DNA of 63,949 nucleotides, counting the filler, from Stramenopiles sp. TOSAG23-3 (Eukaryota), in the NCBI GenBank assembly GCA_900128585.1. It is 12 parts of 12 records of this genome, joined end to end, with 100 filler letters (N's around TTAATTAATTAA, not from the genome) between each part and the next. Parts side by side here need not be neighbours in the genome. Positions count along the whole stretch, not along the records: positions 1 to 6,653 come from LT643277.1; positions 6,754 to 13,403 come from LT643278.1; positions 13,504 to 20,132 come from LT643280.1; positions 20,233 to 26,858 come from LT643281.1; positions 26,959 to 33,576 come from LT643282.1; positions 33,677 to 40,285 come from LT643283.1; positions 40,386 to 46,990 come from LT643284.1; positions 47,091 to 53,694 come from LT643285.1; 4 more parts are not named here. The stretch is one strand, 5' to 3'. Numbering within the stretch: position 1 is the stretch's first letter; every line of letters starts with the position of its first letter. The translations under genes and the position numbers were made by a program. Under the pieces are notes generated by a model. That model saw nothing but the letters and a program-made list of their open reading frames with translations. It made no database searches and was not told the origin of the DNA. Below, piece after piece: positions 1,073-49,847 of this stretch.

Positions 1073-1230
1073 AATTTTAAATGCCTTGGGGTCCCACGGG
1101 CAAGAAAGAGTGTAGTACACTAAAAGAATTAACTTCTTATTTCCGTAATTTTAAAAAATACTCATACTCCGACCAAAACAATTTTACGAATTTAATACTC
1201 TAAATAACAGCCGCCTATATTTTTGTCTTT

Positions 1231-4200
1231 TCATTGTGCAGCTTTCGAGTACAGAGCGAATAATTCATTGCATTTCTCTTGGGAAACATACGTAGCACAC
1301 CCGCTGAAAGCGACGACAAAATCCCCATTCTCATAGTGACCGTGAACATTGTTCGAATACTCTTTCGGGTACCCATTGAATACCCGCTGTGGAAAGTAAT
1401 GGACGCGCTGAGACAACTCATGTTGGTTCATGAATTCAAACAAGAAGTACATGGAAGCTTGCTCCCACCATGGGTGCCGAACGAACACCATTTCATTTGC
1501 ATCAGAGGTGGTTGGTCCATATACAGCCTTCAAAAGTGTTTCAGACCAATCGCTGTTCGTTCGAACCGCAAAAAAACCAGTATTCAGCATTGTCCCATCT
1601 TTTGACAAAACCAAATCTTTGTGTGCTCCCCCTAGAATTTGATCTGACAATAAAAATCGGAGATCATAGCGTTGTCCATCACTACCAGCTTTGTTCATGA
1701 AAAACGAGTCACAGTCAGTCCACACAACCCAGTCAAATCTGTCTTTCATTTCCATGTACTTCTGGACTATTTTTACTTTCTCCCAAGCTGGGGGGCGATC
1801 TTTCGCATGCGCGACTGTTTCAATAAACAATGGGTATCCAAACGCTTGCGCGTAGTTCACTTTGTTATGCGCAGACAGCATGGTAAGCGGTGTGCGCAAG
1901 GGGTCGTATTGACACAAGGACACAATAGCCACCTTTGAAGAAACCGGTGCGGCGTGCTGATATTTCCAAGCCTTCTCCCATACAACACTTGGGTGAACAC
2001 TTTTGTGCTCCGGAACTGGCAACGCATTTGTTGCACCCAAGTGCATCAAAATTAGCTCGTCGAGGTTAACATTATAATGCTTTGAAGCCTGATCTCCGCC
2101 AATCTCATACACCATAAAAGCACCATAAAAAATAGCGTCGGTAAGTGCTTTCTTCGCCAAAAAAATATCCTCTTTCGGAAGTAATGGAATTTTGGCTTTT
2201 AAAGTTTCAAAATTAATATCACTGTGTATTTTCAGCAGTGTCTGCGCTTCCTCGTAAAAAAGCCTGCCTACCAACCCTAAGGTTATATTGCTGTAGTCTC
2301 CGAGAGTCTGTCGCGCTTCTAAAGCGTACTCGAGACTGTCGCTCCGCTGTCTGTCTTCCCGAGCAAAACGCCCATTCTTGATAAATATGTGCAATTCGCG
2401 AGCCTTGGCATAGACGTAATCCTTGCAAATACCGTCAATGTTCCAAGGGTCTAGCTTGAGCCTCGCTCCAACTAGTTCTATGGCTCTGTCGCGGGTAGCC
2501 GCAATGTGTTGCCGCAATACTTCGCAGTCATCGTTGTGAGAATTAAAGTTATAAATCGAGCAATATTCATCTGCAATTGCTTCTGGGTCGTCTTTTGGGG
2601 CGACTGCAATAGTAATGCTCTTGCCATCAATTGAAAAAGCAAGGGGGACAGTGTTGTCAACGATTACGTTGTATCTAATTTCTCCGGGGCTGCCTTTACT
2701 CAACCGATTTTCCTCGACCTGAACTTGGTTCAACAAATTGGCACAAGACTCATCACCAAACATATTACTTTTACAAAATTCAGAGACTTTTTCGTCAATA
2801 CTTTCATCCTCCAGCACTAAGATTACTTCGGGTTTATTTGCTTCCAAGTCTGCATCATCAAAATGTGAGGTTGGGTCAACTTTCGCTAAATATTTTTTGC
2901 GAATTTCAGGAAGCAATCGTTCGCACATACTGATGCGGACACTCTTGCCCAAGTGCTCACTGCCATAATCACGAATAACTGCCAAATCGTTTTCTGCTAC
3001 ATTGCGATTGTGCACTTTGCTTAGCGCCTTGTTATACGACGCTTCTGCTTCACTGAATCGAGATTTTGCCATATGCAGCTGAGCGATCGAAGACTGGGCT
3101 GTTCCATCACTTGCTTCTTTCACCTGAATGGCCATTTTGAAGGCCTCCGCAGCTTTTCTGTATTTTCCTAATCGCATGCGAACTATTCCCAGACGGGTCA
3201 GTACATTGTACCGTTGAATGCTAACAACAGTGGGCAACATTGACGCCTCATTCAGCACTTTTTCGGCTTCCCTTACCTCTTCTTCTATACTGCTGACTTG
3301 CAACAGGTTTGCCAGATTAGTTAATGGGCGTGCGAGTCCAGGGCTTGCAACATGGGCGTCTCGATACAATTGTTTTGCAGCTTCCATCATTGAATCTCGC
3401 TTAGTAGTATTTACTTCTTTCCCGGCCATCTTTTCTGTCAACAGAGCGAGCGAATTCATAGTCTCGCCATATGTTGGGAGCAAAACCATCGCTGTTCGAA
3501 AGTGGTGTTCTGCCTTGCCCCAGGTAGTGACGTTGTGTGCGTACAATGTTCCAAGACCATGGTGAGCTCTTGGGTTGTTCGGCAGAACAGCAGCTGCTGA
3601 TTGGAACAGGCTGAAAGGCGAACGCCAGTCCTCGTTGCGAAGAAATGTTCGCACAACATAAAACGCAATAAAAAACACCATTGGCGCTCTTCGCTGTACA
3701 AATGAAAGAAAAATTGTTTTTTTATCTGCCAAGCGCTGCGGCGGAACTTCTGTTAGGGGATAAGATTTTTCCAGGCGCTTTAATGCGAAAGCTAGCAAAA
3801 TGCAAAACCCGCTGCTTGGTGTAAATAACACTCTTTCCGCCCACACGAACCCTACAGGGAAAAAGGCATTGCTCGATGGAACGAAAGGAATGACCATCAT
3901 CGCCAACCCCATCATCACCACTAGCCGGTCGTTTAGGCTGTCTCTCGTTAACTCTGTTGCAAAGTACGCGATCGTTATTACAGCAAGAATGACGGGTACC
4001 ATTCGAATATCCATTACTGTCGTTACCAAATGGTTCACGTCCGGCAAGGATGGGTTTCCCATTGCCCAATCAATTGTCAACTCATGTGGAAGTATTAAAA
4101 ACCACAGGTTCATCGCGTTTACGTACGAGTAAGATAGAAACCGGGTGTAATATTTTGAGACGTACTCGTCGTGGTCGTCTGGATTTTCTGGGACGAAAGA

Positions 4201-6468
4201 AGCCACTAGATTCTCACTCGGAGAGAATTTCGGCATCGATTTGTTAATTTTTAATCGCTGCTGCAGGACCATTAACAAAACAAACGTGTTCAGTAGGAGG
4301 CGAGCTGAATATCCCCGTAAAGAAAAGAAAGGGTCGCCCCTCGTGTCACCGTTTTGTTTTGCTGTCTTGTCAAATGCCCGTGCTGGCAAGTTTGCTTCCC
4401 TCCGGTGGAATAGGGCGGCTTGGAGGTACTCAAAGAGTGACTTCACAGTAATGTTTTTCACTGTACCAACATCGGCACACGCTGTTTTCGCTAAATCCGC
4501 ACAAGCCTGCGCATACAAATGGAGAGTGTCATAGACTACAAATAGTCCTACAACTGTGATCCCTTGCTCTTTCGATAGCATTGCACAGACTGCCAGAACC
4601 AGAGACAGGACGTGCATGAGTGTACTCTTGAGAACACTCCCACGCGCGGATGCGCTCCATCCTATCTTTGGCCTGCCGTGGAGTGTGATTCCGTATGTCA
4701 TGGCTGCCGCCTTGATGTACAAAATTAAAGATACGAATACAAAAAAACAGCACAAAAGCTCGCACCGGCCAACTGTGTTTGCGACAGCTTCCGTATGAAT
4801 AGGGTGGGCGATAAACAATATTGTCGCCAGCTGGGGGGTTGAAAGGTGCATGCTTCGGAAAGAATTCCTAGACCCGGACTCCGGACACAGTAAATGGGCC
4901 ACGACACAAAATAGACATGACACGATGCCAAATAGAAAAATATTGAACAAATGCATCGCGGCAGCCGGCAGCCTGTTATCAGCCGCACTGTTTGACGAAA
5001 ACTGGGACGACAGCTGCGCCTGAACCCTAAATGTTAGTGTAGTAATTGGCCGGAAACTTTTGTGGGACCCAGCTAAATGAAGCGGGTGTCCCCAAAAATC
5101 ATGCTTGAAAACGTCGTGAATTGTCGTCTGGCTGTGGCGTGCGACTATTGGGTTGCGAACAATAGCTGGCTCGTCGTCGTAAAGAAATCCAACGTCGTAG
5201 GTGTTCGCATATAAACAGCAAGAAAGGAAAAACGACATCGCTGCTTGAAACATCAGCGTGAAAGAACCTTTCGCCGGTTGCTCGTCCTGACTAAGATGAA
5301 ATTGCCGTAACGCTTCTTCGACGTGGGGAATAGTAGAATTTTCTTTTTTGTTCGTTTGCAGATAGAAGGATTCCCATGTCGACCTGTATCCCCCCCCTTC
5401 TTGTGCAAGCCTCTTCTTTGAGCGCACAGTCAAGCCAATCACTCGACTCTTCTTCGAATCGCTCACAATGACGTACACAGAATCGTTACTAGAGTTCCAA
5501 TCTTTCTTTGAAGTGTACATGCCCACCAATTTATCCTCTGCCTGAATGCCGTTGTCGATTCCAATGGAACGGAGCTTGTTGCTCGGGCTCCCGTTGTTGT
5601 TGGGGACATTTGCGTTGAACAACAGCACCAGTTCCGTGTAATGTTTCAACTGGCATTTTACAATTTTGACCCTAACTATTTCACTGCTGGCCCCTCCTGC
5701 GTAAAATTTTTTCAAATTGCACTCTTTTTTACTGTTCATTTTCTCAATTGATTTGACGATGATATCCTTGATTGTAGTGTTTCGAGGAGCGTTCTCCGTC
5801 CTTTTACTCTTTTTTATAGTAATGCCACTGGCATTCGCTCGCCGGACCATTATCCACTCCCCTAAATCGTCAGGGTTATATCCCTTCACTGCACCCTTCT
5901 TTTCCGAATTCTCTTCCCCGCTTTCAAGACTATCATACAGACCACCTGCAAGGTGCACAAAACCATTTTCAATGTAAGTCTTTGCGGCATACGGCGACCC
6001 TGTACCCAAAATGCAATATTCCCCCAAACTTTCGTGGTCCATCGCTTCCATGCAAAAACGAACCATCCGCTTGGACAGGCCTCTTCTTCGGTGCGCTGGC
6101 AAGGTGAACACATTGTGCAAAGCGCATGCTGTCTTATCCTCTCCATTAAAGACCACGCTTGAGTGCGCGACTATCTTATTCGACGAGCTTCGACTGCCAG
6201 GCAATTGCGAGTTCACTTCTTGGCTACTTAATTCTGACTCGTAAGCAATAAATAAAATAACTCCACCCGCACTGTGGACGCAACGTTCAAAAAAGTCCGG
6301 CCCAAAAGATATTTTGTAGTGGGGCCCATAGCCATCCAGTAGAGCATTAATTTCAGCAGCCAATTTAGAACTGATGGGAGATACAAGCTTTTCAATTATA
6401 TACGTTTTGCTTTCCCCGTCCCGTCCCTCAAATACATACTTCTCCGCCCAAGCACCACGTTTGGGCAT
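1231..6468 (-). CDS. Fusion protein: N-terminal GNAT acetyltransferase, TMTC-type protein O-mannosyltransferase (GT-C, DUF1736), TPR repeats, C-terminal GT34 (GMA12/MNN10-like) glycosyltransferase
   Basis: Single open frame from ATG 6468. GNAT motif A NVFTLPAHRRRGLS. TMTC motifs FLYDDEPAIVRN, HDFWG..SHKSFRPITTLTF, HPIHTEAVANTVGRCELL, AMLSKEQG, AERVLFTPSSG, RNEDW. GT34 motifs NKVNYAQAFGY, RPPAWEKV, WTDCDSFFMN. Confidence 0.85.
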   Translation of the reverse strand: MPKRGAWAEKYVFEGRDGESKTYIIEKLVSPISSKLAAEINALLDGYGPHYKISFGPDFFERCVHSAGGVILFIAYESELSSQEVNSQLPGSRSSSNKIVAHSSVVFNGEDKTACALHNVFTLPAHRRRGLSKRMVRFCMEAMDHESLGEYCILGTGSPYAAKTYIENGFVHLAGGLYDSLESGEENSEKKGAVKGYNPDDLGEWIMVRRANASGITIKKSKRTENAPRNTTIKDIIVKSIEKMNSKKECNLKKFYAGGASSEIVRVKIVKCQLKHYTELVLLFNANVPNNNGSPSNKLRSIGIDNGIQAEDKLVGMYTSKKDWNSSNDSVYVIVSDSKKSRVIGLTVRSKKRLAQEGGGYRSTWESFYLQTNKKENSTIPHVEEALRQFHLSQDEQPAKGSFTLMFQAAMSFFLSCCLYANTYDVGFLYDDEPAIVRNPIVARHSQTTIHDVFKHDFWGHPLHLAGSHKSFRPITTLTFRVQAQLSSQFSSNSAADNRLPAAAMHLFNIFLFGIVSCLFCVVAHLLCPESGSRNSFRSMHLSTPQLATILFIAHPIHTEAVANTVGRCELLCCFFVFVSLILYIKAAAMTYGITLHGRPKIGWSASARGSVLKSTLMHVLSLVLAVCAMLSKEQGITVVGLFVVYDTLHLYAQACADLAKTACADVGTVKNITVKSLFEYLQAALFHRREANLPARAFDKTAKQNGDTRGDPFFSLRGYSARLLLNTFVLLMVLQQRLKINKSMPKFSPSENLVASFVPENPDDHDEYVSKYYTRFLSYSYVNAMNLWFLILPHELTIDWAMGNPSLPDVNHLVTTVMDIRMVPVILAVITIAYFATELTRDSLNDRLVVMMGLAMMVIPFVPSSNAFFPVGFVWAERVLFTPSSGFCILLAFALKRLEKSYPLTEVPPQRLADKKTIFLSFVQRRAPMVFFIAFYVVRTFLRNEDWRSPFSLFQSAAAVLPNNPRAHHGLGTLYAHNVTTWGKAEHHFRTAMVLLPTYGETMNSLALLTEKMAGKEVNTTKRDSMMEAAKQLYRDAHVASPGLARPLTNLANLLQVSSIEEEVREAEKVLNEASMLPTVVSIQRYNVLTRLGIVRMRLGKYRKAAEAFKMAIQVKEASDGTAQSSIAQLHMAKSRFSEAEASYNKALSKVHNRNVAENDLAVIRDYGSEHLGKSVRISMCERLLPEIRKKYLAKVDPTSHFDDADLEANKPEVILVLEDESIDEKVSEFCKSNMFGDESCANLLNQVQVEENRLSKGSPGEIRYNVIVDNTVPLAFSIDGKSITIAVAPKDDPEAIADEYCSIYNFNSHNDDCEVLRQHIAATRDRAIELVGARLKLDPWNIDGICKDYVYAKARELHIFIKNGRFAREDRQRSDSLEYALEARQTLGDYSNITLGLVGRLFYEEAQTLLKIHSDINFETLKAKIPLLPKEDIFLAKKALTDAIFYGAFMVYEIGGDQASKHYNVNLDELILMHLGATNALPVPEHKSVHPSVVWEKAWKYQHAAPVSSKVAIVSLCQYDPLRTPLTMLSAHNKVNYAQAFGYPLFIETVAHAKDRPPAWEKVKIVQKYMEMKDRFDWVVWTDCDSFFMNKAGSDGQRYDLRFLLSDQILGGAHKDLVLSKDGTMLNTGFFAVRTNSDWSETLLKAVYGPTTSDANEMVFVRHPWWEQASMYFLFEFMNQHELSQRVHYFPQRVFNGYPKEYSNNVHGHYENGDFVVAFSGCATYVSQEKCNELFALYSKAAQ

Positions 6469-6653
6469 GATGACGCGCAAGGAAACAAACTGTTGCAAGA
6501 GCAACGTGCAAAAGCTCAGAAGAGACCCGATCGCATATATAGAGAGGAACGGTCAATTATTTCTTTTGTAACAAATGCTTTTCTTTGTAAGTCTATTTGT
6601 TAAACCGCGGCAATATCCTTTATTTGTGATTTTGTTGATTTTCAAACTTTTGT

Positions 6654-6753: not shown

Positions 6754-6832
6754 TAAGAATTATGCAAACAGCCAATTTTCTTGCTTTTATGTAAACATTT
6801 TATTGAGAACGCACGCATCTTCAACATGGACC

Positions 6833-7687
6833 CTACCACGACGGTGTGCGCTTCTCAATTAAGGCATCCAATCCTTCCCCTACTGACGTTGCGTAATTAT
6901 GCGCCTGGCAATCTGCTTCGCGCCACAACGATCGTTCAATTTGATCGTCTTGCGCATTTCTCAAACTACGCACGCACATTTGAACGGCGTCTGGGCTCTG
7001 TTTGGCAATACGGCCCGCGAGCGAAAGTGCGTGCTCAAGCGGGTCGTCCGCGAGCAAAGCCAGTCCCAAATCGCTGGCCTCTTGACCTGAGATAACGTCA
7101 CCCGTCAACAGCAAACGAGCTGCCGTTTGATGGCCGACAAGGCGAGGCAAATAGTGCGTGGCTGCCATTCCAGGGTGAAGGCCAAGGCCGACGAACGTTA
7201 GCCCGAGCTTGCATTTTGGGTGAGTGACCCGGATATCGGTGGCCAGAGCAACGCAGAAGCCTGCCCCAATGGCCGGGCCGTTCAACGCAGAAATGACCGG
7301 AATAGGCAAGTTTCGCAGCGAGAGAAAACGACGATAAAATGCCCTCATTATTTTGGTATTGTTGTACGGCGTGTCGTTCGTCCTGTCCCTCAAGAACTGC
7401 AAATCCCCCCCGGCTGAAAACGCCGTGCCAGCCCCGGTCAATACGCAAGCTTTTAAAGTGTCATCTGTAGCAAGGTCTTTCATTGTTTCCTCAAACGCCT
7501 CCCCCATGAGAACAGTCATTGGGTTCAACTTTGCCTCATTCGACAGCGTAACCACGCACACACCATTCTCTTGTTTGTCTACGACTACCGGGCCATCAGC
7601 CCGCGAAGAGAACAACCGGGCAAACGACGGAGTACCTTTTCGCGCAACAACGCTACGGGTCGTTCGTCCAACCCAACTTGAAATCAT
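6833..7687 (-). CDS. Enoyl-CoA hydratase/isomerase (crotonase) family protein with a probable mitochondrial presequence
   Basis: AFSAGGDL, PVISALNGPAIGAG, DIRV, LGLHPGM; Arg/Ser-rich N-terminus free of acidic residues (…FARLFSS). Confidence 0.9.
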   Translation of the reverse strand: MISSWVGRTTRSVVARKGTPSFARLFSSRADGPVVVDKQENGVCVVTLSNEAKLNPMTVLMGEAFEETMKDLATDDTLKACVLTGAGTAFSAGGDLQFLRDRTNDTPYNNTKIMRAFYRRFLSLRNLPIPVISALNGPAIGAGFCVALATDIRVTHPKCKLGLTFVGLGLHPGMAATHYLPRLVGHQTAARLLLTGDVISGQEASDLGLALLADDPLEHALSLAGRIAKQSPDAVQMCVRSLRNAQDDQIERSLWREADCQAHNYATSVGEGLDALIEKRTPSW

Positions 7688-8293: not shown

Positions 8294-9746
8294 CTATGTT
8301 TCATTTAGGGTTTCCATTTTATTTTTATTCCAAGAATTGAGTCCTTTCGAAATTTCAAACCCCAAGTCATTTATGGGGTTCGCAATTGTCGTCCTTCGGG
8401 CCTCCCTCTGAACTAGCTCGATCATTTGTTCTGTGGTCTTGGACTGAACGTCTTTGAAAGAAACTGCCAAACTACCAGTCCTTGCAGTCCTTTCATATTT
8501 CATTGCAGTGTAGTATTTTGACAAAGGCATGGCTTTCAGCATAATTGTCTCGACTAATAATGTAACCATTGAAAGTAAGCCCAGTGCTGACGTCAAGCAT
8601 ACAAGTACTGATTGTGGATTGAAATGATGTTCATATCCCTGGACATCTGGAATAATGGCTATACCATGCTTTACGGTAAGTATCCTTTTTTTTCCCTTTA
8701 TAATTTCTTCATTGTAGTGATGACTGTTTTCTGGACCTTTGAATATTTCAATATTATAATAATACGATAAGTTGCCTATCCCAAATACCGCATGTTTATC
8801 TATATCAGTGTACACGATGTGCACATTTAGGGTCAAGCCGTGACCCCGAAAAGGGATTTCTTCCCCCGTGTGCGTTGCTCCAGTTACCTTATCATCAAGC
8901 AGGTGCACTTCCGCGGATGTCAATCCTGCAAGAAGTAATGTTCGGACTTCATACACATCATAACCACATTCTTTCTCGCGACAAGTGGCGTCGGTGCAAC
9001 GATGGCAATCATGTGTTCTTTCCGGCTCCACTTTACAATAAAACACATCCTCCCCTTTTTGGTCTTTGTAAATTTTATCTGAATTTTCCCCATACAACTG
9101 GACACATTGTTCCCTATTTTTCGACTTCAAATGCCCCGATTCAATATGCTCTGATGTCAATTCTGGCCTTTCATTTGTGGCATGCTGAATCAAAAGGGTA
9201 TATCTCTCAACATCTGTGATATAAAATTCGCGGTTATATTCAGTTGGTTTTTCAGAGTGCGGAACGTCTAACCAAAGGTTACCATAAGCGCCGTCGGCTG
9301 TTAGCGGGTTGATATAGCTACCCGACTCGCTCAGGTTAGAGTTGAACTCCTGATATTTATACTCAATTTGAGTTGCCATGAACAGTGTTGATGCATACTC
9401 TGTGATAACATTGTTTGCGTCGACCCATATGCAATCTTTCTTGTCATGCGCATATGGTAACGTCGAAAGTTTGCAATATGGTAAGTCTGAAGAATTTGTG
9501 AAATCGTCGTAACATTCCTCTTTTCCACACAGCGGGCTTTCTTTTCCGCCGTAGCAGTGACAATGTTTTTCTCCTTTGTCGTTTCGTGTCGGGTTCGTCT
9601 GCCCACCCCCTCTTCAAATACAGTTGGTAAACAACAACCCACACAAAACAAGAAAAGAGAAGCGCGAAGCGCAGGAGGCCAAGGCGCCTGTCACGTATTA
9701 CAACCAGTCGGGTAGTTGTGTATGCGAAAAGGTCGTCACACTTCAT
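8294..9746 (-). CDS. P2X receptor-like trimeric ion channel, with a frameshift near 9605 (pseudogene or assembly error)
   Basis: N-terminal FAYTTTRLVVIRDRRLGLLR (YxTxK/R motif) plus TM1 in one frame. A second stop-free frame from ~9613 to 8294 gives a Cys-rich ectodomain, RILTVKHGI, TM2 (LTSALGLLSMVTLLVE) and a YxxxK motif. Confidence 0.75.
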
Positions 9747-10113
9747 ACTTTATTAAAACTAAGCTTCGTCAATTAATGCCCGTTCGGCACTCTGATTAAC
9801 ATCGCGTTAGTAAAAATTAGGTTATCATGGATTTCATTTCATTAGTACATATTTTGCATTGTTGAAGGCAACTTTATCTAGCGACTGTAGGTTACGCGTC
9901 GTGTGGTCTTTTTAAACTGACTATATTAATAATTAATTACAACAACAAAACGGAGAAGAGAATATACGGCCACGTGGACACCACGCAGAAAGTAAAAAAA
10001 CGTGATGATATTACATACAGTTCGTTGTTTAAATTATAATTTTAACGATTTTATTTTCACAATAACAATTTATAAAGGGTATTTTATATTACAAATATAA
10101 TACTGTAGACGAC

Positions 10114-10198
10114 TACAGTTCTTGACCGCACTTCCTAGACTACACTTCCTAGGCGTCCTCGTAGTCTAGGAAGTGCGGTCAATGAGTCAAGAACTGTA
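10114..10198. repeat. GC-rich foldback: perfect 22-bp stem with 17-nt loop, plus an outer 13-bp pairing
   Basis: 10122-10143 TTGACCGCACTTCCTAGACTAC is the reverse complement of 10161-10182; 10114-10126 pairs with 10186-10198. Confidence 0.9.
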
Positions 10199-10387
10199 AT
10201 GGAATTTTCAAATAAACATATGTTGAAAATTCAAAAAAAGGTGTATTATTGTATTATAACTAGAACGACTAGACTACAGTAGTAAATATTGTATTAATAC
10301 TTAATTCCATTTTAATGGCACTGTACTTTTTAAGTCCGATTTTGGGTCCAGAAGCTAATAATGGGGTGGACTTATTATTTTTTTAAC

Positions 10388-10536
10388 CAAAAAAAGTTCT
10401 CTTTTATTTTCACTCTACGCATTTATATAGAACATTGTTACAAGTACAAAAAATCATTGAATTTTATCGCGAAAACTTAAAATATTGTACTTCCTATATA
10501 AATTGGTATAGTGAAAATAAAAGAGAACTTTTTTTG
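10388..10536. mobile_element. MITE-like element with perfect 27-bp terminal inverted repeats
   Basis: CAAAAAAAGTTCTCTTTTATTTTCACT (10388-10414) and its reverse complement at 10510-10536; imperfect pairing extends ~20 bp inward; no clear target-site duplication (TSD). Confidence 0.55.
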
Positions 10537-10982
10537 TGAAGTTTGTGTTGTCCGAATAGAATATATTTTCCTATCTAATATATGCTTATTTACATACTTG
10601 TAAAATACTCTACACTACAATTGTAAGAAGAAAAACAAGATTTCGAGGTTGCTTTATTTATCCCTAAGAGATGATACAAGTACTTATTGCCTATGTAATT
10701 ATTTTATCATAATTAATTCAATAGAAAGTGGGTTTTGTTTTTTTAGTAGAGTTGATTAAGTAATAGATTATTACTTGGTAGGGTAGGTTCAAAGAACGTT
10801 TATAATTTTGAATTAAGTGTGCTATGAATATCTTCTTTTTTACATACAAATTATACAAAAACTTGGACCCACGTGAAAGGCTCGAATTGCCCCTGGGGAA
10901 GTTGTTGGATTTTCAAGGTTTTGCTTGGTGGTGTTTGGTCTTTTTGTTGGTTCGTGTATATATATTTTCTTTTTAGCCGACG

Positions 10983-11819: not shown

Positions 11820-11842
11820 GAAATCGATTTAAAATTTACCCA

Positions 11843-12241
11843 ACGATAAATTTGAAGTAATTTCTTACTCTTAAATAACAGCCATTATTTTGTTTTTTTA
11901 ATTTTACCCATCAACTATTAAATAAAATCACAAGTATCGAATCATATCTTTGAAAAACAAGAAAATTGGCTGTTGTTGTTAATTTAAGTAATTAAAATTA
12001 ATGTACTGCGAACTGTACTCTAAATTTAGACATTCCCAAGGTTTACCATTCCTTCATATGCTGCGTATCTTTAAAAACAAAAAAATTGGCCCTCTGTTAT
12101 TTAACTTTGGAAGTATCATATCATACTTCGCCATTAAAATAAAAAACTTTTAATTTAAAGTGCGCCAATTAAAATGTATCTTCTTCATTATATTCTGCGA
12201 AAGTGAATCTCTGCTCCTTTTGTCCATCTCTGCTCCTGAGA
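11843..12241. repeat. Cluster of four partial copies of the dispersed 3'-end repeat family, in both orientations
   Basis: TTAAATAACAGCCATTATTTTGTTTTT (11871), AAAAACAAGAAAATTGGCTGTT (11953), AAAAACAAAAAAATTGGC (12073), CTGCGAAAGTGAATCTCTGCTCCTTTTGTCC (12195). Confidence 0.85.
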
Positions 12242-12376
12242 TTTTCCTCTCGTACGTTTATCTTTTATCTTGCTAAAGAATTAATCTGATAATATATATT
12301 GAACATATAAAGGATACTACAACCTGATGGACGTTGCATTACAAAAACACACTCGTACGCGGCGAAGCGCGATAGA

Positions 12377-14168: not shown

Positions 14169-14350
14169 AGCTGCGCGATTTGCAATTTGTATTTTTAAAA
14201 GTTGTGGTTCTATTCCGTAGCATCCATACAGCACGAAATGTGCCACTGAAAAAACGAAGGGTGTAGCACGAAAAATGTAATGTTTGTAACCAGTGTTCTT
14301 GTTTCTGTATTTTCTTTCCGGTCCATTGTTTATTTAATTACTCGGCGAGA

Positions 14351-16954: not shown

Positions 16955-16986
<32 letters not shown>

Positions 16987-19799: not shown

Positions 19800-20273
19800 A
19801 AGAAAAACGTTTTCTTTATGCATAAAAACGGTGCGCATTAAGCAATACTGTGTTTGCTACCTTACGCACGAGCAGCTGGTGCGAAAGCTTGCGATCTAGT
19901 TAGAATGCGCGGTGGTAAATTAATTTAAATACTCGATCACGGTTGTACATACACTCGAGATATTTTATTTATTATTCAGAATTAGGCGTTTGCGAGTAAC
20001 GAATTTTTTTAAATTCATCTCTTCGAAGAAAAATTGTCTGGATATAAAAACACATTTATCTCTGAGTGAGATATCGGATGAGGAAGTTGATTACGGTTCA
20101 TCTGCAAGCATTGCCAATTCAGATACCGATCCNNNNNNNNNNNNNNNNNNNNNNNNNNNNNNNNNNNNNNNNNNNNTTAATTAATTAANNNNNNNNNNNN
20201 NNNNNNNNNNNNNNNNNNNNNNNNNNNNNNNNGACAACCAACAATGAAACAAAACTACAGAACCAAGTTAGGA

Positions 20274-20332
20274 TTAGGGTATGAGGACGCTAAATTTAAT
20301 TACTTAAATATCAGCCAATTTTCTTGTTTTTA
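20274..20332 (+). repeat. Copy of the 3'-end repeat family
   Basis: TTAGGGTATGAGGACGCTAAATTTAATTACTTAAATATCAGCCAATTTTCTTGTTTTTA differs from 30080-30138 at only 3 positions. Confidence 0.9.
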
Positions 20333-20362
20333 GTTATTATTACGAAACAAACATGTCTGGCT

Positions 20363-27316: not shown

Positions 27317-27596
27317 ATGTAAGAGGTTGGAGCACGGTGTGGAGAGTAAGGGTTGTGTCTGTCTGCGTGTGTATTTTGATAATGCGTGCCATAAGATTAA
27401 ATAACCTAAATAACAGAGAGCCATTATATTTTTGCTTTTAAATACTTTTGTAAGTTCGTACCCAAGAGAGGGTGTAATTTTTCATTTTATGTAAAGTTTG
27501 CTTTTTGACAAAACTAATTTTATAAGTCTGACATAAACTTATACTCGCGTATTATTATGATACATACACCATACAGTAAAACTTCCTCGGCGCATC

Positions 27597-29715: not shown

Positions 29716-29967
29716 TCGCTATCTCGCGAGAAAATGATTAATAATAAGGGGAGAGTGTAAATAATTAATATAATTCTTAATATTTTATTGCGTGCAATTG
29801 TGCGAAAATTTAATTCTCTCTTTCATTCAAAAAGTTAAAAAATGTCTTTTTAACTATGTTCCAAAATACAATATAGGTATGATGAATAAAACACAGGGGA
29901 AAAGACGAATCTTCTGATGAGTTTTTGTGATGCTAATTAGATGTTAAAGTGTTTGGAGGTTTTTATA

Positions 29968-30140
29968 CCGCGAAAGTGAATCTGCTCCTTTTGTCCAGTA
30001 TGAGTATGATATCAATAAAAAACATACTATATAATCAGTTTTTTTTTCAATAAAAAACAGTATAATTTAATTTTTTTTTTTAGGGTATGAGGAAGCTAAA
30101 TTTAATTACTTGAATAACAGCCAATTTTCTTGTTTTTAAT
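29968..30140. repeat. Two oppositely oriented modules of the 3'-end repeat family
   Basis: GCGAAAGTGAATCTGCTCCTTTTGTCCAGTATGAGTATGAT (29970) and TTAGGGTATGAGGAAGCTAAATTTAATTACTTGAATAACAGCCAATTTTCTTGTTTTTAAT (30080). Confidence 0.9.
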
Positions 30141-30227
30141 TTAATTTTTTTCAATAAAGAACAGCTCCCCCCCCCCCCCCCTCACACCACAGCGAACATC
30201 TGCACTTTCAAGCATCGTGATTTCACC

Positions 30228-39869: not shown

Positions 39870-39984
39870 TGAAGAATACAGAGAACATCTTAGTTTTGTT
39901 ATCAATTTTAAATTAGAAATTCACCTTTTTGGATTTTCAGCAATGGGAGAGATATGAAATTTTACAAGCACGTTTATCACTAAA

Positions 39985-40197
39985 TTAAAAACAAGAAAAT
40001 TGGCTGTTATTTAAGTAATCACTAAATTATGGCTAAATATGATAAGAACTATGATATGAAAAAAAAACAATATAAGAACTATGATATTTTTAAAAAAACA
40101 AATTTATATTTTAGTATGCATAACATTTAATATAAATTACAGCCAATTTTCTTGTTTTTATTTTAGTATGCTTAAATAACAGCCAATTTTCTTGTGT
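39985..40197. repeat. Inverted pair plus a tandem copy of the 3'-end repeat (MITE-like, ~175 bp)
   Basis: TAAAAACAAGAAAATTGGCTGT (39986) … ACAGCCAATTTTCTTGTTTTTA (40139-40160), with a further copy at 40171-40197. Confidence 0.85.
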
Positions 40198-40385
40198 TAT
40201 TTTAGCATGATATGCTTTAAGACTCTCATAGAACTATTTATCATATCGTACGCATTTTGGTTTTTTGTTCTTCTTAAATTTCATGNNNNNNNNNNNNNNN
40301 NNNNNNNNNNNNNNNNNNNNNNNNNNNNNTTAATTAATTAANNNNNNNNNNNNNNNNNNNNNNNNNNNNNNNNNNNNNNNNNNNN

Positions 40386-40464
40386 TGCGAGGTTTCTCTT
40401 TTTGTTTACTTCGCCCCGAAGGCCTTTCTGCACGCTTCATAAATGGAGACGCTTCTTTGTTACC
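40386..40464 (-). repeat. Exact 79-bp inverted duplicate of the other end of the same contig (46912-46990)
   Basis: Base-by-base reverse-complement match; both ends translate to GNKEASPFMKRAERPSGRSKQKEKPR. Confidence 0.95.
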
Positions 40465-41694
40465 AATACTGTATCTATGTTTAATGTATTTTTTTCTAGG
40501 GGACTTCGTATTAATTATTACATCTGTAGCACTTTGATTTTTACTCACTATACATATTTTATGTACAGGCTGGTAGCAGGTTGGTCGGTGGAAAATGTTG
40601 TTCTTCTTTTTTTACTCCATCCATAAAATTTGATACTCTGTTCCTGCTGTATGTATAGTATAATTAATTTATTTAATCGATACAAAACGAAGCGAAAGCA
40701 GAAAGAAAAGAATAAAAAAAAATGTTGTTTCGCTTTTTTTCATTGTTTAAGTAGTGTTTAAAGATGTTGTCAATATATTTAATAATTATTATATAACTGT
40801 AGCATCAAATTATACAAGAGGCACAAAAAATGAATCCTTATCCAAACATACAATAGCTTAATGGAATTATGTTTTTGTTTTTTTGGGTGGATGGATTCGT
40901 ATTGACCGACTGATAAAACATTGTAAACGTACGCTATCGACGATATGATAGAAAGGAGGCACAGCGCACAGCCAACCAACACAGGCCACTATGAAAAATA
41001 GTATTTTATGCTGTGTATATATATAACATACCTAGCATACAAATAATAGTGAATAAATAATTTATTAATGCTGTGACTATATAATAAATTGCAAGTTCCC
41101 CCAAGCCATTCATTAGTTTCTATGATATTCTCATCTTACCCTGTGGTATTCTTATGGTATACCGTTCTTCGGCTGTGCTAATATTATGTTATACCTCTAT
41201 TACTTCATCCAAATCGCATTGTTGTAAGGAAATGTTTACATAAAATTACCTCTGCATTGTTTTGTCGTCAATCGTTTCTTTATTATTATAATATTAATAC
41301 CACAAAGTGATACTATTACATCCCAATAGATTCGTACTTTACCTTACGTTTTAAAGAGATGAAATTCGAACCTTGCCACACCAGGAAAAAGACTTGATAA
41401 TATACGTATACATACGCATACCATGTAATAATAAAAAAAGCAATCTTCTTCTTTTTTTTCTTCCTCTCTCAATAATAATAAATAGCAAATTAATTAGCTG
41501 TCGTCAGTCTCTCTGACAATTAACGATCATTTGATCAGACGACGGAATGGGATAGGCTTGTTGGCCATCAGACTCTTGCTCGGTGAAGAAAAGGTTTGAA
41601 AGTGTTCAGGTATCGAAAACAACCGTAAAATTACTCACACAGTGTAATTTACTATAATTAATCTTCACATTTTAAAAAGAACGAAACAAGAAGA

Positions 41695-42288
41695 ATGGTA
41701 TTCCAAAAGTGTATCGTAGTTGACGGCAGAGACCACATGCTTGGTCGCCTCGCCTCAGTTGTTGCGAAGGAACTTCTTTCTGGGCAAAATGTTGTTCTAG
41801 TCCGTTGCGAAACCATCAACGTAAGTGGAAGCTTTGTACGCAACCAAATGAAATGGGCCAGGTTTATGCGCAAGCGTACCAACACCAACCCAAAATGGGG
41901 CCCTTTCCACCACCGTGCCCCTTCCCGTGTTATGTACCGTACCATCCGTGGTATGATCCCTCACAAGACCAGCCGTGGTGCCAACGCGATGGCCAGACTT
42001 CGTTGCTTCGACGGTATCCCAGCGCCATACGACAAAGTAAAACGCATGGTTGTTCCAGATGCCCTGCGTGTAAACCGCCTGCGACCAGGCCGCCGTTTCA
42101 CTGTTATCGGAGACATTGCCAACGCAAGTGGGTGGAAACATGCTGACCTTGTTAAGCGACTCGAAGCCACCCGTAAGGCTAAAGCAGCTGAATTCTATGC
42201 AGCAAAGAAAGCAACTGCCGCTAAAGTTGCCAAAGCAAAGGCCGCGGAACCTTTGACTGCCAAACTAAACGCCGGTGGGTTTATGTAA
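41695..42288 (+). CDS. RPL13A: 60S ribosomal protein L13a (uL13)
   Basis: [38 protein letters not shown]. Confidence 0.98.
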
Positions 42289-42541
42289 ACGTCGTAATGT
42301 AGATTAGTAGTTAATGAAACAAATATTAAGGGAATTTATTAATAAAATACTATTCTCGAAAACCAATTAGACGTGCCTTGCACACACATCTTAGACCCTG
42401 CGGAACAAACCTCCCACCCTTTAAGATTACATTGTGTTGTAGTTGTACTATATAGGAGCAACACCAAGAATGTTGTGTTTTAGAATATGATAGAAACTAT
42501 TCGTTCGGCCGTACCCGGCCAGTGAGTTACTTCGGTTTTAC

Positions 42542-42629
42542 TTAAAAAACAAAAACTTGGCTGTTATTTTGAAGTAGTTAAAATTTATCGTCTTCACTTA
42601 CTGCGAACTTGTCTCTGCTCCTGAGACTG
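42542..42629 (-). repeat. Longest copy of the 3'-end repeat, linking its two modules
   Basis: Minus strand reads AGTCTCAGGAGCAGAGACAAGTTCGCAGTAAGTGAAGACGATAAATTTTAACTACTTCAAAATAACAGCCAAGTTTTTGTTTTTTAA. Confidence 0.85.
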
Positions 42630-42859
42630 TACTAATCAATATATACATTTGTCACCTAGTCTTGACTATCATTCTCACATGTGTACTCCATGCATGATCC
42701 GAATCGGTGTGTCGATTAGCGTCGATGCCAAAGGGCCCGTAGTCACAACTTCCTCATCCCGTTTTACATTCTTCATTTTTGCCTCAAATGTACTGCGATG
42801 TGTTTCTGCACATTCGCTTTCCTCTTGTTACACTATCGCTCTAAAACAATTGAATCTAC

Positions 42860-44530
42860 TTATCCTCGCTTTCCTTGTCTTGTGCTCCCAGTTGGTGCGC
42901 CAGGAACAAACGCCACTTCATAAAATTCAACGCCAACAACTATATTTGTTCCGGAGTTACAAGAGTAACTTACTTCTATGCCGTTAGCCGTCGAGGATGT
43001 CGACGTTGCTCCGTACAGAGGAGTATCCAAGCTGCTGCAAGATTCGTTCTGTGCACCATTGCTCGCGTTTTCACCTTTAGTGGGTAAAAACTCTCTCCCA
43101 GACATTAAAGAGCATTGCAGATTGTACGCGGACCACTCTCCACTTCTCTGACACATAGTGGACGTGTTTCCACCAGTAAAATTCTCGTTGCAGACAAACG
43201 TTACGTTAGCAGGGAATGCATTGTGCACTCCAATTCGAGTGGAATTAACAGGAGTCTGTATCAAATCACAGAATGTTGGAAACTGTCCTGTTTCCGAGTC
43301 CGTTGGCTCCTTTCCTATGAAAAGGGGGATATGCGAATAGTCGATGTGGTCTTCTGTGAAGCCTGAGGTAATTTTTGGGGTGCTTTCGATGGTAAGGGAA
43401 AATGCGTCATTCAGTCCAAGAAAAGAGCCACCATGCTCGTAAGTGTTCCTATCTATTATTTTCTCCATTGAGTCATCAAATAAAGAGGGTGCCGCCAAGG
43501 TATCCGGTGAGCACGTTCTCATCAAATTGGACTGCAAGACCGAAGGCCACACGGTTTTGTTCAAATTAAAGTCCACCACAGAATCACTGATAAATGGGAG
43601 AGTCGAAAAATTGCAATAGCACTGAACGTTTTGCAGTTGGATTTCAAATGTTTCGTCCGGTTCACCTTCATTGTCGTCCAGAGTTTTTATGTACAGTTCC
43701 GTATGACCGGTGCCCCACTCTATTGGAGTATTGCTACCATGCATTGTAAATTCCTGCTTTGTGGTGTTTATAGCGATGTCCAGATCGCTTGCGGTCCCGG
43801 TGTAGGTTTCTCCGTCGGCTTGCATCACTGGGGTTATATGGACAGAAATTTGAGGGTAAGCTGCTGAAAAATCCGCGCTGGAACTAGCAGTTGCATTTAC
43901 TTTAATTGCAGATCTTTCAAAGCCAAAAAAATCTTTCTTCCCAAAATTTACAGTAACATCTCCATCGTCTTGAATTGTTACGATTGCGACAGCTTTGGCA
44001 CCAAGTTGCGGGGAGCAGTCCAGGTTCTGAGGCTGAACATCAGACAGTACTACAGCAAACGTTTCATTCAGTTCAAAATATTTGTCATTTAAAATGGCGA
44101 TTGAAATAACTTTTTTATCTTCATTGTTACTAAACGAAACCTGTTGGTTGTTGACTACGGTATAATCAGAGTTTGCGGTCGCGGGGACGGCGCCAGATGG
44201 CAAGTTTGCGTCGTCGGATGAAGTGCTGTATTTCATGAATGCAGCCCCTAATGTGCCCCCCACTCTCTCTATAGTCAACTGCACCTGAGTAGTTCCTTCC
44301 AAAATGATGCCCGGATCTTCTTTAAATTGGAAAGACCCCTTGGTGCATAACCGCCTTCTCTTGTTCCCAAGTATGGAATTCAATATGGACGATAACCAAG
44401 AACCACTAGTATACGCGCTGCTTCTGACACCTCCCACTGCCCCATCTACACTGAAAACTAGCACGACAAACAACAGCAACAATTTCAACAAAAGGTACAC
44501 CAGTGCTCTGTCTCTGCGTACCATGTCCAT
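42860..44530 (-). CDS. Secreted or surface protein with Calx-beta and Sushi/CCP domains; 3' end possibly degenerate
   Basis: Signal peptide; LTIERVGG…DYT…ILNDKYFELNETFAVVL; DDNEGEPDETFEIQL; VTFVCNENF…CQRSGEWS. Confidence 0.8.
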   Translation of the reverse strand: MDMVRRDRALVYLLLKLLLLFVVLVFSVDGAVGGVRSSAYTSGSWLSSILNSILGNKRRRLCTKGSFQFKEDPGIILEGTTQVQLTIERVGGTLGAAFMKYSTSSDDANLPSGAVPATANSDYTVVNNQQVSFSNNEDKKVISIAILNDKYFELNETFAVVLSDVQPQNLDCSPQLGAKAVAIVTIQDDGDVTVNFGKKDFFGFERSAIKVNATASSSADFSAAYPQISVHITPVMQADGETYTGTASDLDIAINTTKQEFTMHGSNTPIEWGTGHTELYIKTLDDNEGEPDETFEIQLQNVQCYCNFSTLPFISDSVVDFNLNKTVWPSVLQSNLMRTCSPDTLAAPSLFDDSMEKIIDRNTYEHGGSFLGLNDAFSLTIESTPKITSGFTEDHIDYSHIPLFIGKEPTDSETGQFPTFCDLIQTPVNSTRIGVHNAFPANVTFVCNENFTGGNTSTMCQRSGEWSAYNLQCSLMSGREFLPTKGENASNGAQNESCSSLDTPLYGATSTSSTANGIEVSYSCNSGTNIVVGVEFYEVAFVPGAPTGSTRQGKRG

Positions 44531-45717
44531 TTTGCTATTTTTTCCGAAAGAACTGAACTATCCTTTTCTTTTACAGAGCAATAACTTGGTAGACAAAAAA
44601 GTTACGCCGCCACAATGGATGTCCTCACAGCATTCAAATGATCAATTTCGGTCCTTACTATTCCTTATCGCTTGCTCTGTTTTTCAATTTAATTGATCAA
44701 ATAATATACATACTGTACATTTAAATTTTTAGTATTCACACTTTTCTTCGTCTCCTGGAAGGAAATCATGACATTCTCTTCTTCTCGCTCCTCCTCTCTC
44801 TCCTCCTCCTCTTCTTCTTTTTAATAATTTTCTTCTTCTTTCTTCTTCTTCTTTTTTTTAATTTTATTATCATTTTTTCTTCCATTGTCATTATATTGCT
44901 GCTAGCTAAGCTTATAGAGCTTCTGATTATATCGTTCTTCTCTCCACATAATCATCTTTTCGTTGCTTCGTAAAGTAAGGATATCATTGTATACGGGACA
45001 TACTACTACTCCACCGTGTTGTTTATTTTATCGTATCTACTACGTAGCAAAGCATTAAGAAAAGAAAAAATAATTTGTTTTTTAAATTAAAATTAAATAC
45101 TTTTGCCTTAATGTTATCGAAGAGGCTCTCCTAACTTCTCTCTCCCTCCTCCTCCACACTTTTAAAATTTCGATTTAAATCCGGTATTTTTTTATTATTA
45201 GCTAGTCGTCTGTCTATATGTTGTATTGTTAAATACATAAATACGCTTACTACTACATATACTCAACATCAATAGTACATTCAATATTATATTATAAATA
45301 ATATATACTTAACGAAGGGCAATGTTACGAATTCAAGAGCATTTGAGTATTTGAGTACAATGTTGTTATCATTTAATACATTCTGTAGACGACTATAATG
45401 TTAGGTACAACATTTGGTTTGTGGACTTTACAAAGTTTTCTGAAGGAGGGAGAAGGGATGGAGGGATTTATAATAAAAAAAATAAAAAAATAGGAAAAAA
45501 AAGTATATTATAAGAAAGAACAGAGATCACAGAGAGATTAAACTCTCCTCTTGAGTAATCGTATTTTATGAAACAATGTATCGATAGTCATTATGCATAG
45601 TTCAAATTCAAAAATTATTTAAAGAAACAGAACAATTTACCCTCGACCCAATTAGAAATCCGTTAGATCGAATTCAAAACGTCAAGCTCAATGCGTCGTT
45701 GCAATTGATCGTTTGTG

Positions 45718-46990
45718 ATGGAGAAAGGGATCAAATACAAACCGTGCAGATCGACAGTCTATCCCCCGTCAGGTTTTGTCCTTGAAAAACACAAGGAGCT
45801 TTTAGATTTGCCAGATGAATCCCTTGTTTTAGACTACGTGTATGGGTACAGCGTTCGCTCATGCTTAGGGACATCTCTATTTTGCACCTTTGACGGGCGA
45901 TTGGTGTACCCGGCCAGCGCAGTGATTGTGATTCATAGTGTTAGAATAAACAGGCAAGACCACTTTTTGAATCATGAGGATGAAATTACTGCGCTTGCGA
46001 TGCACCCGAACGGGAGAATCTTTGCCAGCGGTGAAACGGGGTTTAAGCCACGGGTGTTCGTGTGGGACGCGGGGTCGCTTGAAGGCGACATGGTCAAGGT
46101 CATCGGTTCGCCGATGTATATGCAGGAACGAAGCGTTAGTGTTGCAGCGCTTCAGTTTAGCAACGACGGTAAATATTTGGTTGGAATAGGGAACGACAAC
46201 AACCACATGGCTCGAATTTGGCAATGGGAGAACGGGTTGATGGTCTTTGAAGGCCGTTCCGCCCAAGCACCGGTTCGAGGGATATCGTTCTTGCATGAGC
46301 ATCATGTATCAGGAACAGACAGTTGCAATTATGCCTTTGTAAGCGTCGGAAACAAGCACGTTCGTTTTTGGACGATGTCGAGACGGCAGCTGAGCACAAA
46401 ATGGAACGTTGACTCAAACACGTCCAACTTTAAGTACATAATTCATTGTGTTTGTCATACACCATTTGGGGTGTGCGTCATCGGCGATTCAAATGGCTCC
46501 ATCTTGCTGTATGACCAGCCCCGAAAGGACCCCCTTCCCGGGCGTTCGGTTGAGGACTTGCCTCCCCGAGGACCGCGAGGGCTCCTTATTGGGAAAGTGG
46601 ACAAAGCCCACGCAAAAGGAGTCACCGCAATATCGTACAACCATGTATTAAACAATGGAATGTTTGCCACTGGCGGGGGTGATGGGACAGTAACCATTCG
46701 AACCTTGAGAAAGAGGGATGAAGACGGGGCAGTCATGCACAAATCTCTCATATCGTTTAATTTGAGTCAATTTTCGACCGTGAAAAAAGATACTGTGAAG
46801 TGTTTGGTCTGGGGAATGGAAAGTAGAGCAAACCTGGAAGATGCCATCTTGTTGAAATCCAGCGGGCCGCCCGGCAAAAAAAAGATGAAACGGATGTCAA
46901 CCAAAAAGGGGGGTAACAAAGAAGCGTCTCCATTTATGAAGCGTGCAGAAAGGCCTTCGGGGCGAAGTAAACAAAAAGAGAAACCTCGCA
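45718..46990 (+). CDS. EMAP/EML-like WD40 protein with HELP motif (3'-truncated; last 79 bp possibly chimeric)
   Basis: LVLDYVYGY, HEDEITALAMHP, ASGETG, VGNKHVRFW, FATGGGDG. Confidence 0.85.
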
Positions 46991-47917: not shown

Positions 47918-48569
47918 ACGCCGCAGAGAAGGTGTGATCGATGGATATCGTATCTTATAAGACAAATCAAGCTTCTCCAAGTTTGGCATTGTGCTTAAGG
48001 CCGGAGCGATTGTTCGGACGTTTTGTGGGGCTCAATCGGAGAGGTCTGGTGTACATTTATGCACACCTAAAGAAATTTTCAAATGCGTATAGTAGATAGT
48101 AGAAGACGACTAAATGAATCTTCTTAGAGAGAGAATTAAATGTTTAACGCAATATTAAGAACCCATACATACACCATACACACAGCACTCATAATAATAA
48201 TGTATTTAATCCTTTATTTTATATTTTTACTTATATTTCCTTAATTGATTCAAAATAAATCCGTTCAACTTCTTTTTTCTTTCTTTTCTTTCTTCTCTTT
48301 TCTTTCTTCTTTCTTCTTCTTCTCTTCTTCTGCTGAGAGAGAAGAGAGTGAGTGTGGTAAATGAAATGTTTGATTGTATACATTGATTGAATCAAATTAA
48401 AAATAGTAAAGCTGTCGTTTTCTTTGGTTATTTAACACGTTCGTTCTTTAGTTAGTTAGTTTGTTTGTGTTTTTTCTGATATACAATCTGTTATTCTTTT
48501 TTCTCTGGACGTCCCACCCTCAACCCCGTGTTCGTTCTACCTTCCCGTACTTTACATAACTAACGAACC

Positions 48570-49631: not shown

Positions 49632-49786
49632 GACGGGGCCGTTCTGAATGTGTATTTTAGTATCTCATAAAAATAATAAACTGAACGTCACGGGTGAAAA
49701 GTTCACCCCGTTTTTTAATAAAAATACAAATTGTGGCAAAACGTAGTTGTGTTTAGTTGTTAGTTTACCCGTAATAATATTCTCTA

Positions 49787-49847
49787 AAAGAAAACAATAA
49801 TGGCTGTTAGCTACTTAGGTAATTAAAACAAAAAATTGGCTGCTAAC
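49787..49847 (-). repeat. Two degenerate tandem copies of the 3'-end repeat
   Basis: AAAACAATAATGGCTGTTA…GTAATTAAAACAAAAAATTGGCTG. Confidence 0.65.

Follow-up and report, generated by a model that had tools for sequence, protein, structure and literature searches.

Short repeats between convergent genes of Stramenopiles sp. TOSAG23-3 are probably truncated ends of a LINE-like retrotransposon

A family of short repeats recurs beyond the 3' ends of genes in DNA from Stramenopiles sp. TOSAG23-3 (assembly GCA_900128585.1), and it raises two questions: what are these repeats, and why do they lie mostly between convergent genes? The stretch that we analysed, which we will call the window, consists of 63,949 bases from 12 contigs (the joints between them read N44-TTAATTAATTAA-N44, and one contig has an internal N35 gap). 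The initial annotation had resolved the repeats into two modules, A and B, joined in different ways, and had offered two readings: a non-autonomous mobile element, or a 3'-end signal taken over by the host and loosely analogous to the bacterial REP/BIME sequences (repetitive extragenic palindromic sequences/bacterial interspersed mosaic elements). From the sequence comparisons below, we propose, with a probability of roughly 75%, that the repeats are 5'-truncated 3' ends of a LINE-like retrotransposon family (long interspersed nuclear element; that is, of the type without long terminal repeats, or non-LTR type).

Modules A and B as parts of one 3' end

Searches with profile hidden Markov models (HMMs) cover all 15 positions given in the initial annotation and so confirm the repeat family. 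With up to three mismatches, the module A string has two matches in the window (20279 and 30085) versus none expected, and the module B string has one exact match (12195-12225, minus strand). A model of the T-rich tail, which is module A, was built from 13 oriented tail copies and reported 14 sites at E < 1e-3 (13 of these 14 match by construction); the next match had E = 1.1. The copy at 27382-27443 is new, and a further piece of the element, at 20054-20132, was also absent from the earlier list. A model of module B found four sites (12245-12186, 30017-29959, 42635-42592, and 12032-11998). The spread over several contigs holds up, and the number of contigs is eight rather than the seven reported at first. 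When all spacers were compared with each other, the copy-bearing ones shared no non-simple segments apart from this family and (GAA)n tracts. The initial annotation also describes ATCATATCATAC-like pieces near the copy at 42542. We also considered whether the TTAGGG at the 5' end of module A is a telomere-like unit, and rejected this: the TTA is flanking sequence in one copy and part of a longer element sequence in a related contig, L005.

L005 came from scanning a prokaryote genome collection with a 21-letter tail pattern. This gave six loci, of which five were chance matches in bacterial contigs, with no similarity outside the 21-mer. The sixth, L005, is a public contig of 4.1 kb (52% G+C) that is eukaryote-like, was binned in a bacterial metagenome-assembled genome, and carries a complete module A together with the sequence upstream of it. 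It probably derives from a close relative of the organism in the window and contaminates that bin. L005 and the window have two repeat families in common, at 84-98% identity, and L005 2964-3022 is 98% identical to window 30080-30138.

In L005, the pieces that match separate stretches of the window are contiguous, and they follow an uninterrupted open reading frame (ORF) of 968 codons that is open at its 5' end. Module A begins 55 nt beyond the stop codon of this ORF. An autonomous partner had been suggested as something to look for, and L005 provides an ORF-bearing parent. A sensitive alignment of the L005 tail to window 42759-42545 spans the last codons of the ORF, the stop, the 3' untranslated region (UTR) with a variant of module B, and the tail, so the order in the element is ORF end, 3' UTR (with module B inside it), and T-rich tail (module A). 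Because the pieces are contiguous and colinear in L005, modules A and B follow one another within a single 3' end, and module B is, as judged from this alignment, the 3' UTR sequence of a diverged subfamily. The apparent modularity and the different joins arise because the copies are truncated at different points on their 5' side and because the subfamilies differ by indels. A mobile-element family, the first of the two original options, is thus retained, but not as a modular non-autonomous element, since A and B run colinearly within the 3' end of a retroelement that carries an ORF.

A related possibility is a short element made of modules A and B, similar to a SINE (short interspersed nuclear element) or a MITE (miniature inverted-repeat transposable element), that borrows only the tail of its autonomous partner. 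An internal segment of about 90 nt in the copy at 12.2 kb has no counterpart in L005, and two long copies have starts no more than about 22 nt apart in element coordinates, which could mark a defined 5' end. However, module B is at the homologous 3' UTR position in the copy that keeps the last ORF codons and the stop. Also, we found no terminal inverted repeats, no tRNA-like head, and no Rfam match, and the flank repeats are variable in length (7-15 nt), unlike those of DNA transposons. This makes the borrowed-tail element quite improbable. A SINE in particular was rejected because we found no Pol III-type head (no tRNA and no Rfam match) and because the long copy continues into ORF sequence.

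The colinearity with L005 also suggests that window contigs 13504-20132 and 20233-26858 may be neighbours in the genome. A flank repeat that would support one joined copy across 20054-20132 and 20233-20332 was not seen. Three window contig ends fall inside copies of the element, so the element breaks assemblies.

The open reading frame and the mode of insertion

Among length-matched proteins, the element ORF has four relatives, with 94%, 77%, 55%, and 39% identity, two of which represent clusters with 116 and 83 members. In the whole protein library (metagenome sets), 279 representative clusters belong to the family at E ≤ 1e-3. With few exceptions they are short fragments, as expected because a multi-copy element assembles badly. 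The most distant relative, P0125, reaches further towards the N-terminus and includes DAKNAF at residue 48, QQGDP at residue 118, and YADD at residue 172 (identified by eye), so it has the three catalytic motifs of reverse transcriptases in the correct order. Another protein, P0129, has an FADD motif (also by eye). A feature-based (language-model) Atlas search with residues 1-480 of P0125 gave a score of 0.96 to an RVT_1 cluster, and 26 of 30 matches were in that set. A word-based search with residues 1-330 of P0125 found only the protein itself. The AlphaFold model was too poor to use (mean predicted local distance difference test score, or pLDDT, of 48.8), and Foldseek gave no matches at E ≤ 1e-3. 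The C-terminal region is Cys/His-rich, with invariant C505, C515, H524, and C528 and an invariant D569-K-R-P, and has no family match. In the Atlas search this part matched unnamed clusters, and the nearest named one was zf-RVT (0.86), which is a weak lead.

Two other proteins carry traces of insertion. P0129 begins with translated tail (13 of 13 residues are those of window 30083-30139 in frame 1), and its 5'-truncated ORF lies within about 12 residues of this tail. Another contig thus has a head-to-tail pair as well. In P0211, a truncated FAE1-type condensing enzyme is fused to a piece of the element, by insertion or by misassembly.

We propose that the full element consists of a long ORF (a divergent reverse transcriptase and the Cys/His-rich C-terminal region), a 3' UTR of about 115 nt, and a conserved tail that ends in ...TTACTTAAATAACAGCCAATTTTCTTGTTTTT. 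The element RNA would be copied into DNA starting from the tail, where an AT-rich target is nicked (T|A context), by target-primed reverse transcription. Copying would often end early, which would explain why each copy keeps the tail and loses a different length at the 5' side. A staggered second cut would duplicate 7-15 bp of the target. New copies would often land directly behind old ones, in head-to-tail pairs, because the junction of tail and flank recreates a similar target. The tail would be the best conserved part because the enzyme must recognise it and because no other part occurs in every copy.

The copies bear the marks of such a process. When aligned (alignment A3), they have a common 3' end and a staircase of 5' ends, with lengths of 28, 32, 38, ~55, 56-59, ~60, ~83, ~190, and ~215 nt. 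A search for target-site duplications had been proposed, and we found flank duplications of variable length. Our script compared the immediate 3' flank of each copy to the upstream 200 nt and scored exact repeats, with 5000 random intergenic positions as the control. Such repeats, of 15, 12, and 13 nt, flank the copies near 30.1, 39.99, and 40.14 kb, so that 3 of 14 copies have an exact repeat of at least 12 nt, versus 0.72% of the controls (binomial P = 1.3e-4). Near-exact repeats were seen by eye at 11.88 kb (10/11), 42.6 kb (8/9), and 12.07 kb (7 nt). At three loci, two copies lie head to tail and have a flank repeat in common (12262-12070 with 12032-11950; 40123-40201; and 49879-49783).

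Some copies also form inverted-repeat pairs. The tail copies at 11852-11902 (+) and 11950-12010 (-) are opposed and 48 nt apart, and those at 39983-40024 (-) and 40129-40162 (+) are about 105 nt apart. It is possible that read-through transcripts of such pairs form long hairpins and are a source of small RNAs.

Placement relative to genes and other features of the window

Placement was scored against our own gene map, which combines ORFs, Pfam matches, and codon usage (as scored after training with the 15 longest ORFs); 25344-26858 and the small contigs are unclassified. All of the placement counts come from 64 kb of the genome and so are a small sample. Copies lie in 6 of 7 convergent spacers and in none of the 21 spacers and flanks that bear promoters (Table 1). 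By Fisher's test, convergent spacers differ from tandem spacers (P = 0.0014) and from all of the promoter-bearing ones (P = 1.9e-5). This upholds the reported bias towards gene 3' zones between convergent genes. The first count was five convergent gaps in eight; with our gene map it becomes six in seven. A distribution in proportion to spacer length, regardless of gene orientation, was the outcome that the initial annotation had set against this bias, and it is not what we found: convergent spacers make up 24% of the internal non-coding DNA, yet they account for all six of the internal loci with copies (0.239^6 = 1.9e-4).

Why are the copies confined in this way? The simplest reading, from their placement, is retention where no promoter is disturbed. 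That is, short insertions are most likely kept only where there is no promoter, possibly with a target preference as well.

Another reading, compatible with a mobile origin, is that the host has co-opted the retroelement-derived tail as a termination, polyadenylation, or barrier element between convergent genes. Tandem spacers contain gene 3' ends just as convergent spacers do, and the difference between the two classes (6/7 versus 0/8) would be expected if the tail had such a role. The copies lie 2-430 nt past stop codons, and the tail, by eye, has the layout of a poly(A) site, with an AAATAA-like word and then a T/GT-rich run. It is also unstructured, as single-stranded signals tend to be. 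On the other hand, a copy on the sense strand lies downstream of only 7 of the 14 genes at convergent spacers, four convergent spacers have copies in one orientation only, and one convergent spacer has no copy. Intact flank repeats at the young copies, and 98% identity to a copy from another genome, point to recent insertion and not to old conserved signals, and recognition by the enzyme together with 5' truncation also explains the conservation of the tail. We consider co-option unlikely. A general poly(A) or termination signal of the host was rejected outright, because only half of the genes at convergent spacers (7 of 14), and none of the 8 that end in tandem spacers, are followed by a sense copy. 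Taken together, active targeting of the element to convergent gaps or a takeover of its tail by the host there is a tentative possibility given this placement.

The placement at gene 3' ends, the use of both orientations, and the tandem and inverted pairs would also fit an element like the bacterial REP/BIME sequences, which are short, dispersed, and clustered as well and which would act via an RNA or DNA hairpin. But REP sequences are palindromic hairpins, and the copies here are eukaryotic retroelement fragments that do not fold. For 11 copies, the folding z-scores ranged from -2.2 to +2.0 (mostly near zero or positive, with 9 of 11 within ±1.8), and no inverted-repeat core was seen. Without a stable fold, the hairpin that defines REP/BIME is gone, so the bacterial analogy fails and a REP/BIME-like element is extremely improbable. 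The same folding rules out a structured hairpin or terminator in the copies. An RNA gene was rejected because Rfam gave no matches at gathering score in the whole window and permissive scans of 11800-12400, 42480-42700, 29800-30250, and L005 gave chance-level matches only. There are no tRNA or tmRNA genes in the window. We had also considered a spliced-leader RNA or an introner, given words like CAG|GTATGAG and TTTTTAG, and dropped this once the copies proved to be colinear with the 3' end of the ORF; a possible host intron (9380-9443) has no such words.

Returning to a LINE-like retrotransposon as the source of the repeats, several observations weigh against it. First, the reverse transcriptase was called from three motifs seen by eye and one language-model search; none was recognised in Pfam, NCBIfam, PADLOC, or PDB sequence searches, where the element ORF has no match. 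We saw no endonuclease domain in the ORF, whose N-terminus is missing. Second, the 64-kb window has no full-length copy, and 5' truncation alone is insufficient for the fragment at 29959-30017, which has module B and no tail. Third, 6 of 14 copies have no flank repeat of at least 7 nt in our script, and two of the short script matches (at 11952 and 27412) are probably not true duplications. Fourth, the copies have no poly(A) or simple-repeat tail: they end in ...CTTGTTTTT and the flank follows directly. Such a tail is common among LINE clades but not universal. Finally, the 3' UTR parts of all 8 tandem spacers are empty, which is not readily explained by retention alone.

Table 1. Copies of the element, the spacers and flanks that hold or lack them, and (GAA)n/(CTT)n tracts
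Feature	Position	Strand	Placement	Basis and flanks
Degenerate tail copy	1188..1234	+	Convergent spacer 1073-1230; T-rich end enters stop codon of minus-strand gene 1231-6468 (ORF 1231-6504)	nhmmer E=2.6e-4
Tail copy cut by contig start	6759..6793	+	3' flank of enoyl-CoA hydratase gene 6833-7687 (-)	nhmmer E=1.9e-5
Tail copy, ~55 nt	11852..11902	+	33 nt past stop of gene 10983-11819	nhmmer E=6.7e-6; flanks AAATTTACCCA / AATTTTACCCA (8-nt exact repeat by script, longer match by eye)
Copy of ~83 nt, module B remnant and tail	11950..12032	-	Head to tail behind the 12070..12262 copy	Tail and module-B HMMs; flank AAAGATAYG common to both copies
Copy of ~190 nt, module B (duplicated GGAGCAGAGA), internal segment, and tail	12070..12262	-		Tail and module-B HMMs; flank AAAGATA
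Last 79 nt of element ORF coding sequence	20054..20132	+	Contig end, 255 nt past UCH gene stop	95% identity to L005 2804-2882; tblastn versus P0121 aa (residues) 927-961, E=1.8e-6
Element 3' UTR and full module A	20233..20332	+	Contig start, 30 nt from stop of minus-strand ORF 20363-20671	93% identity to L005 2923-3022; nhmmer E=3e-13
Tail copy, newly found	27382..27443	+	Convergent spacer 27317-27596	nhmmer E=7.9e-4
Module-B-only fragment, no tail behind it	29959..30017	-		B-model nhmmer E=1.2e-7; blastn 87% over 39 nt to the 12.2-kb copy
Young tail copy, 56-59 nt	30078..30138	+		98% identity to L005; exact 15-nt direct repeat 30063-30077 / 30137-30151
Tail copy, 32 nt	39986..40017	-		Tail HMM; exact 12-nt direct repeat TAATTTAGTGAT
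Two head-to-tail tail copies (40129-40162 and 40164-40201)	40123..40201	+		Tail HMM; each bounded by ATTTTAGYATG; 13-nt exact flank repeat at first copy
Copy of ~215 nt, colinear with L005 ORF end, stop, 3' UTR (including module B variant), and tail	42545..42759	-		blastn 64% over 219 nt, E=5e-11; flanks ATGTAAAAC / AAGTAAAAC by eye
Two overlapping degenerate tail copies	49783..49879	-	2 nt past stop of gene 49881-52931	nhmmer E=6.5e-5 and 5.5e-6; flank repeat not found
Convergent spacers with a copy (6/7)	1073-1230, 11820-12376, 27317-27596, 29716-30227, 42289-42859, 49632-49880
Convergent spacer without a copy	15629-15994		Between GFO/IDH gene and CENP-S gene
Tandem spacers with a copy (0/8)
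Divergent spacers with a copy (0/5)
5' flanks at contig ends with a copy (0/8)
3' flanks at contig ends with a copy (4/6)	6754-6832, 19800-20132, 20233-20362, 39870-40285
(GAA)n/(CTT)n tracts	13504-13613, 13904-14170, 33060-33576, 44780-44880, 48270-48330, 53850-53920, and others

The spacers have other sequence features. Long (GAA)n/(CTT)n tracts occur in promoter-side spacers and at contig ends and are absent from the copy-bearing convergent spacers. Three genes have a run of 9-15 G on their sense strand, 14-61 nt past the stop (25372-25382 (+), 30167-30181 (-), and 49859-49867 (-)), and two of the three runs directly adjoin copies of the retroelement. A G+C-rich hairpin followed by a T run (CACGGGTGAAAAGTTCACCCCGTTTTTT), similar to an intrinsic terminator, is found at 49690-49725 in the convergent spacer 49632-49880. 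The second repeat family is palindromic, foldback, and MITE-like: it is at 10375-10536 (arms 10388-10430 and 10494-10536) in the divergent spacer 9747-10982, and it is 84-86% identical, in both orientations, to L005 3153-3337. In L005 the foldback palindrome (3058-3431) is about 370 nt long and lies immediately downstream of the retroelement tail.

The genes of the window have long, intron-free ORFs, as in an intron-poor eukaryote, and encode DNA ligase I, UBA3, a UCH protease, an EML-like WD40 protein, a P2X receptor, RPL13A, and CENP-S, among others. The best named relatives of UBA3 are from stramenopiles (about 52% identity), and the only closer ones are metagenome proteins (88%, 72%, and 68%). 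These features fit an uncultured marine protist that is stramenopile-like and has a compact genome. The P2X receptor gene is in two ORFs (8294-9379 and 9444-9746, minus strand) with 64 nt between them; no obvious GT-AG intron separates them, so a frameshift, an assembly error, or an unusual intron are the options. The minus-strand ORF at 1231-6504 encodes 1757 amino acids in one piece, with a GNAT acetyltransferase, a TMTC-type O-mannosyltransferase region with TPR repeats, and a GT34 galactosyltransferase domain. At 62898-63947 (-) there is part of a Ty1/copia-type polyprotein (with a retroviral polymerase SH3-like domain), and within this ORF is a 27-nt tandem repeat (63094-63255, five overlapping 54-nt matches at 27-nt spacing). 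Finally, contigs 40386-46990 and 61681-62765 have terminal inverted repeats of exactly 79 nt that are 100% complementary, versus 0-2 nt in the other ten contigs; in contig 61681-62765 the repeat is inside an ORF with two open ends. These repeats have the look of an artefact of the assembler, linked to a k-mer length, and not of biology.

Known systems and compact genomes

The element resembles non-LTR retrotransposons in the common 3' end, the variable 5' truncation, the flank duplications of variable length, the head-to-tail clusters, and the long ORF with reverse-transcriptase motifs. It is unusual in that it has a unique T-rich end instead of a poly(A) or microsatellite tail, the putative reverse transcriptase is too divergent for Pfam RVT_1 to score, and the ORF extends about 850 amino acids beyond a GGMGF motif. 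Penelope-like elements also have 5' truncation, variable flank duplications, and partial head-to-tail tandems, but we detected neither their hammerhead ribozyme (none at Rfam gathering score in the window, none at E ≤ 5 in three copy-bearing stretches, and none at E ≤ 1 in L005) nor their GIY-YIG endonuclease domain (none by Pfam).

With respect to placement, the closest parallels are in other compact genomes. SIDER1 and SIDER2 of Leishmania are reported to be short interspersed degenerated retroposons of about 0.5 kb that are found in 3' UTRs, are extinct, and regulate mRNAs (PMC11520807, PMC5509151, PMC5689007, PMC2943621, PMC2424063). As described there, they too are truncated retroposon remnants that are concentrated downstream of coding regions in a compact protist genome. 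In contrast, the copies here are 28-215 nt long, some look recent, they are known from sequence alone, and their bias is towards convergent spacers and not 3' UTRs in general. Some retrotransposons of gene-dense genomes are reported to have safe havens, such as Dictyostelium TRE and yeast Ty1 and Ty3 at tRNA genes (PMC6101501, PMC5911963). The likeness is that a mobile element is limited, within a compact genome, to one narrow set of sites where it does no harm. The differences are that the niche here is convergent gaps and not Pol III genes, that the window has no tRNA gene, and that targeting is here only a possibility. At the level of listings and abstracts, we found no earlier report of retroelement fragments that are confined to convergent spacers.

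If the repeats are truncated ends of a LINE-like element, then a puzzling "modular" repeat would be ordinary retrotransposon debris, and no new kind of element is needed. Going by its motifs, this reverse-transcriptase family is abundant in marine metagenome protein sets but goes unscored in Pfam, NCBIfam, PADLOC, and PDB sequence searches, so standard repeat and domain annotation will probably miss the element family. If the element is targeted to convergent gaps, or its tail has been taken over there, then these gaps would be a new kind of safe haven for a retrotransposon. If co-opted, the tail would hold opposing polymerases apart, as a terminator or barrier that tolerates either orientation, where the genome is very compact. 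In function it would then correspond, in a eukaryote, to REP/BIME or SIDER, and the reverse transcriptase that drives it would belong to a lineage missed by current profile libraries. Thus, if the restriction to convergent spacers reflects targeting or co-option, it would bear on how compact eukaryotic genomes tolerate mobile elements and how they keep convergent transcription separate.

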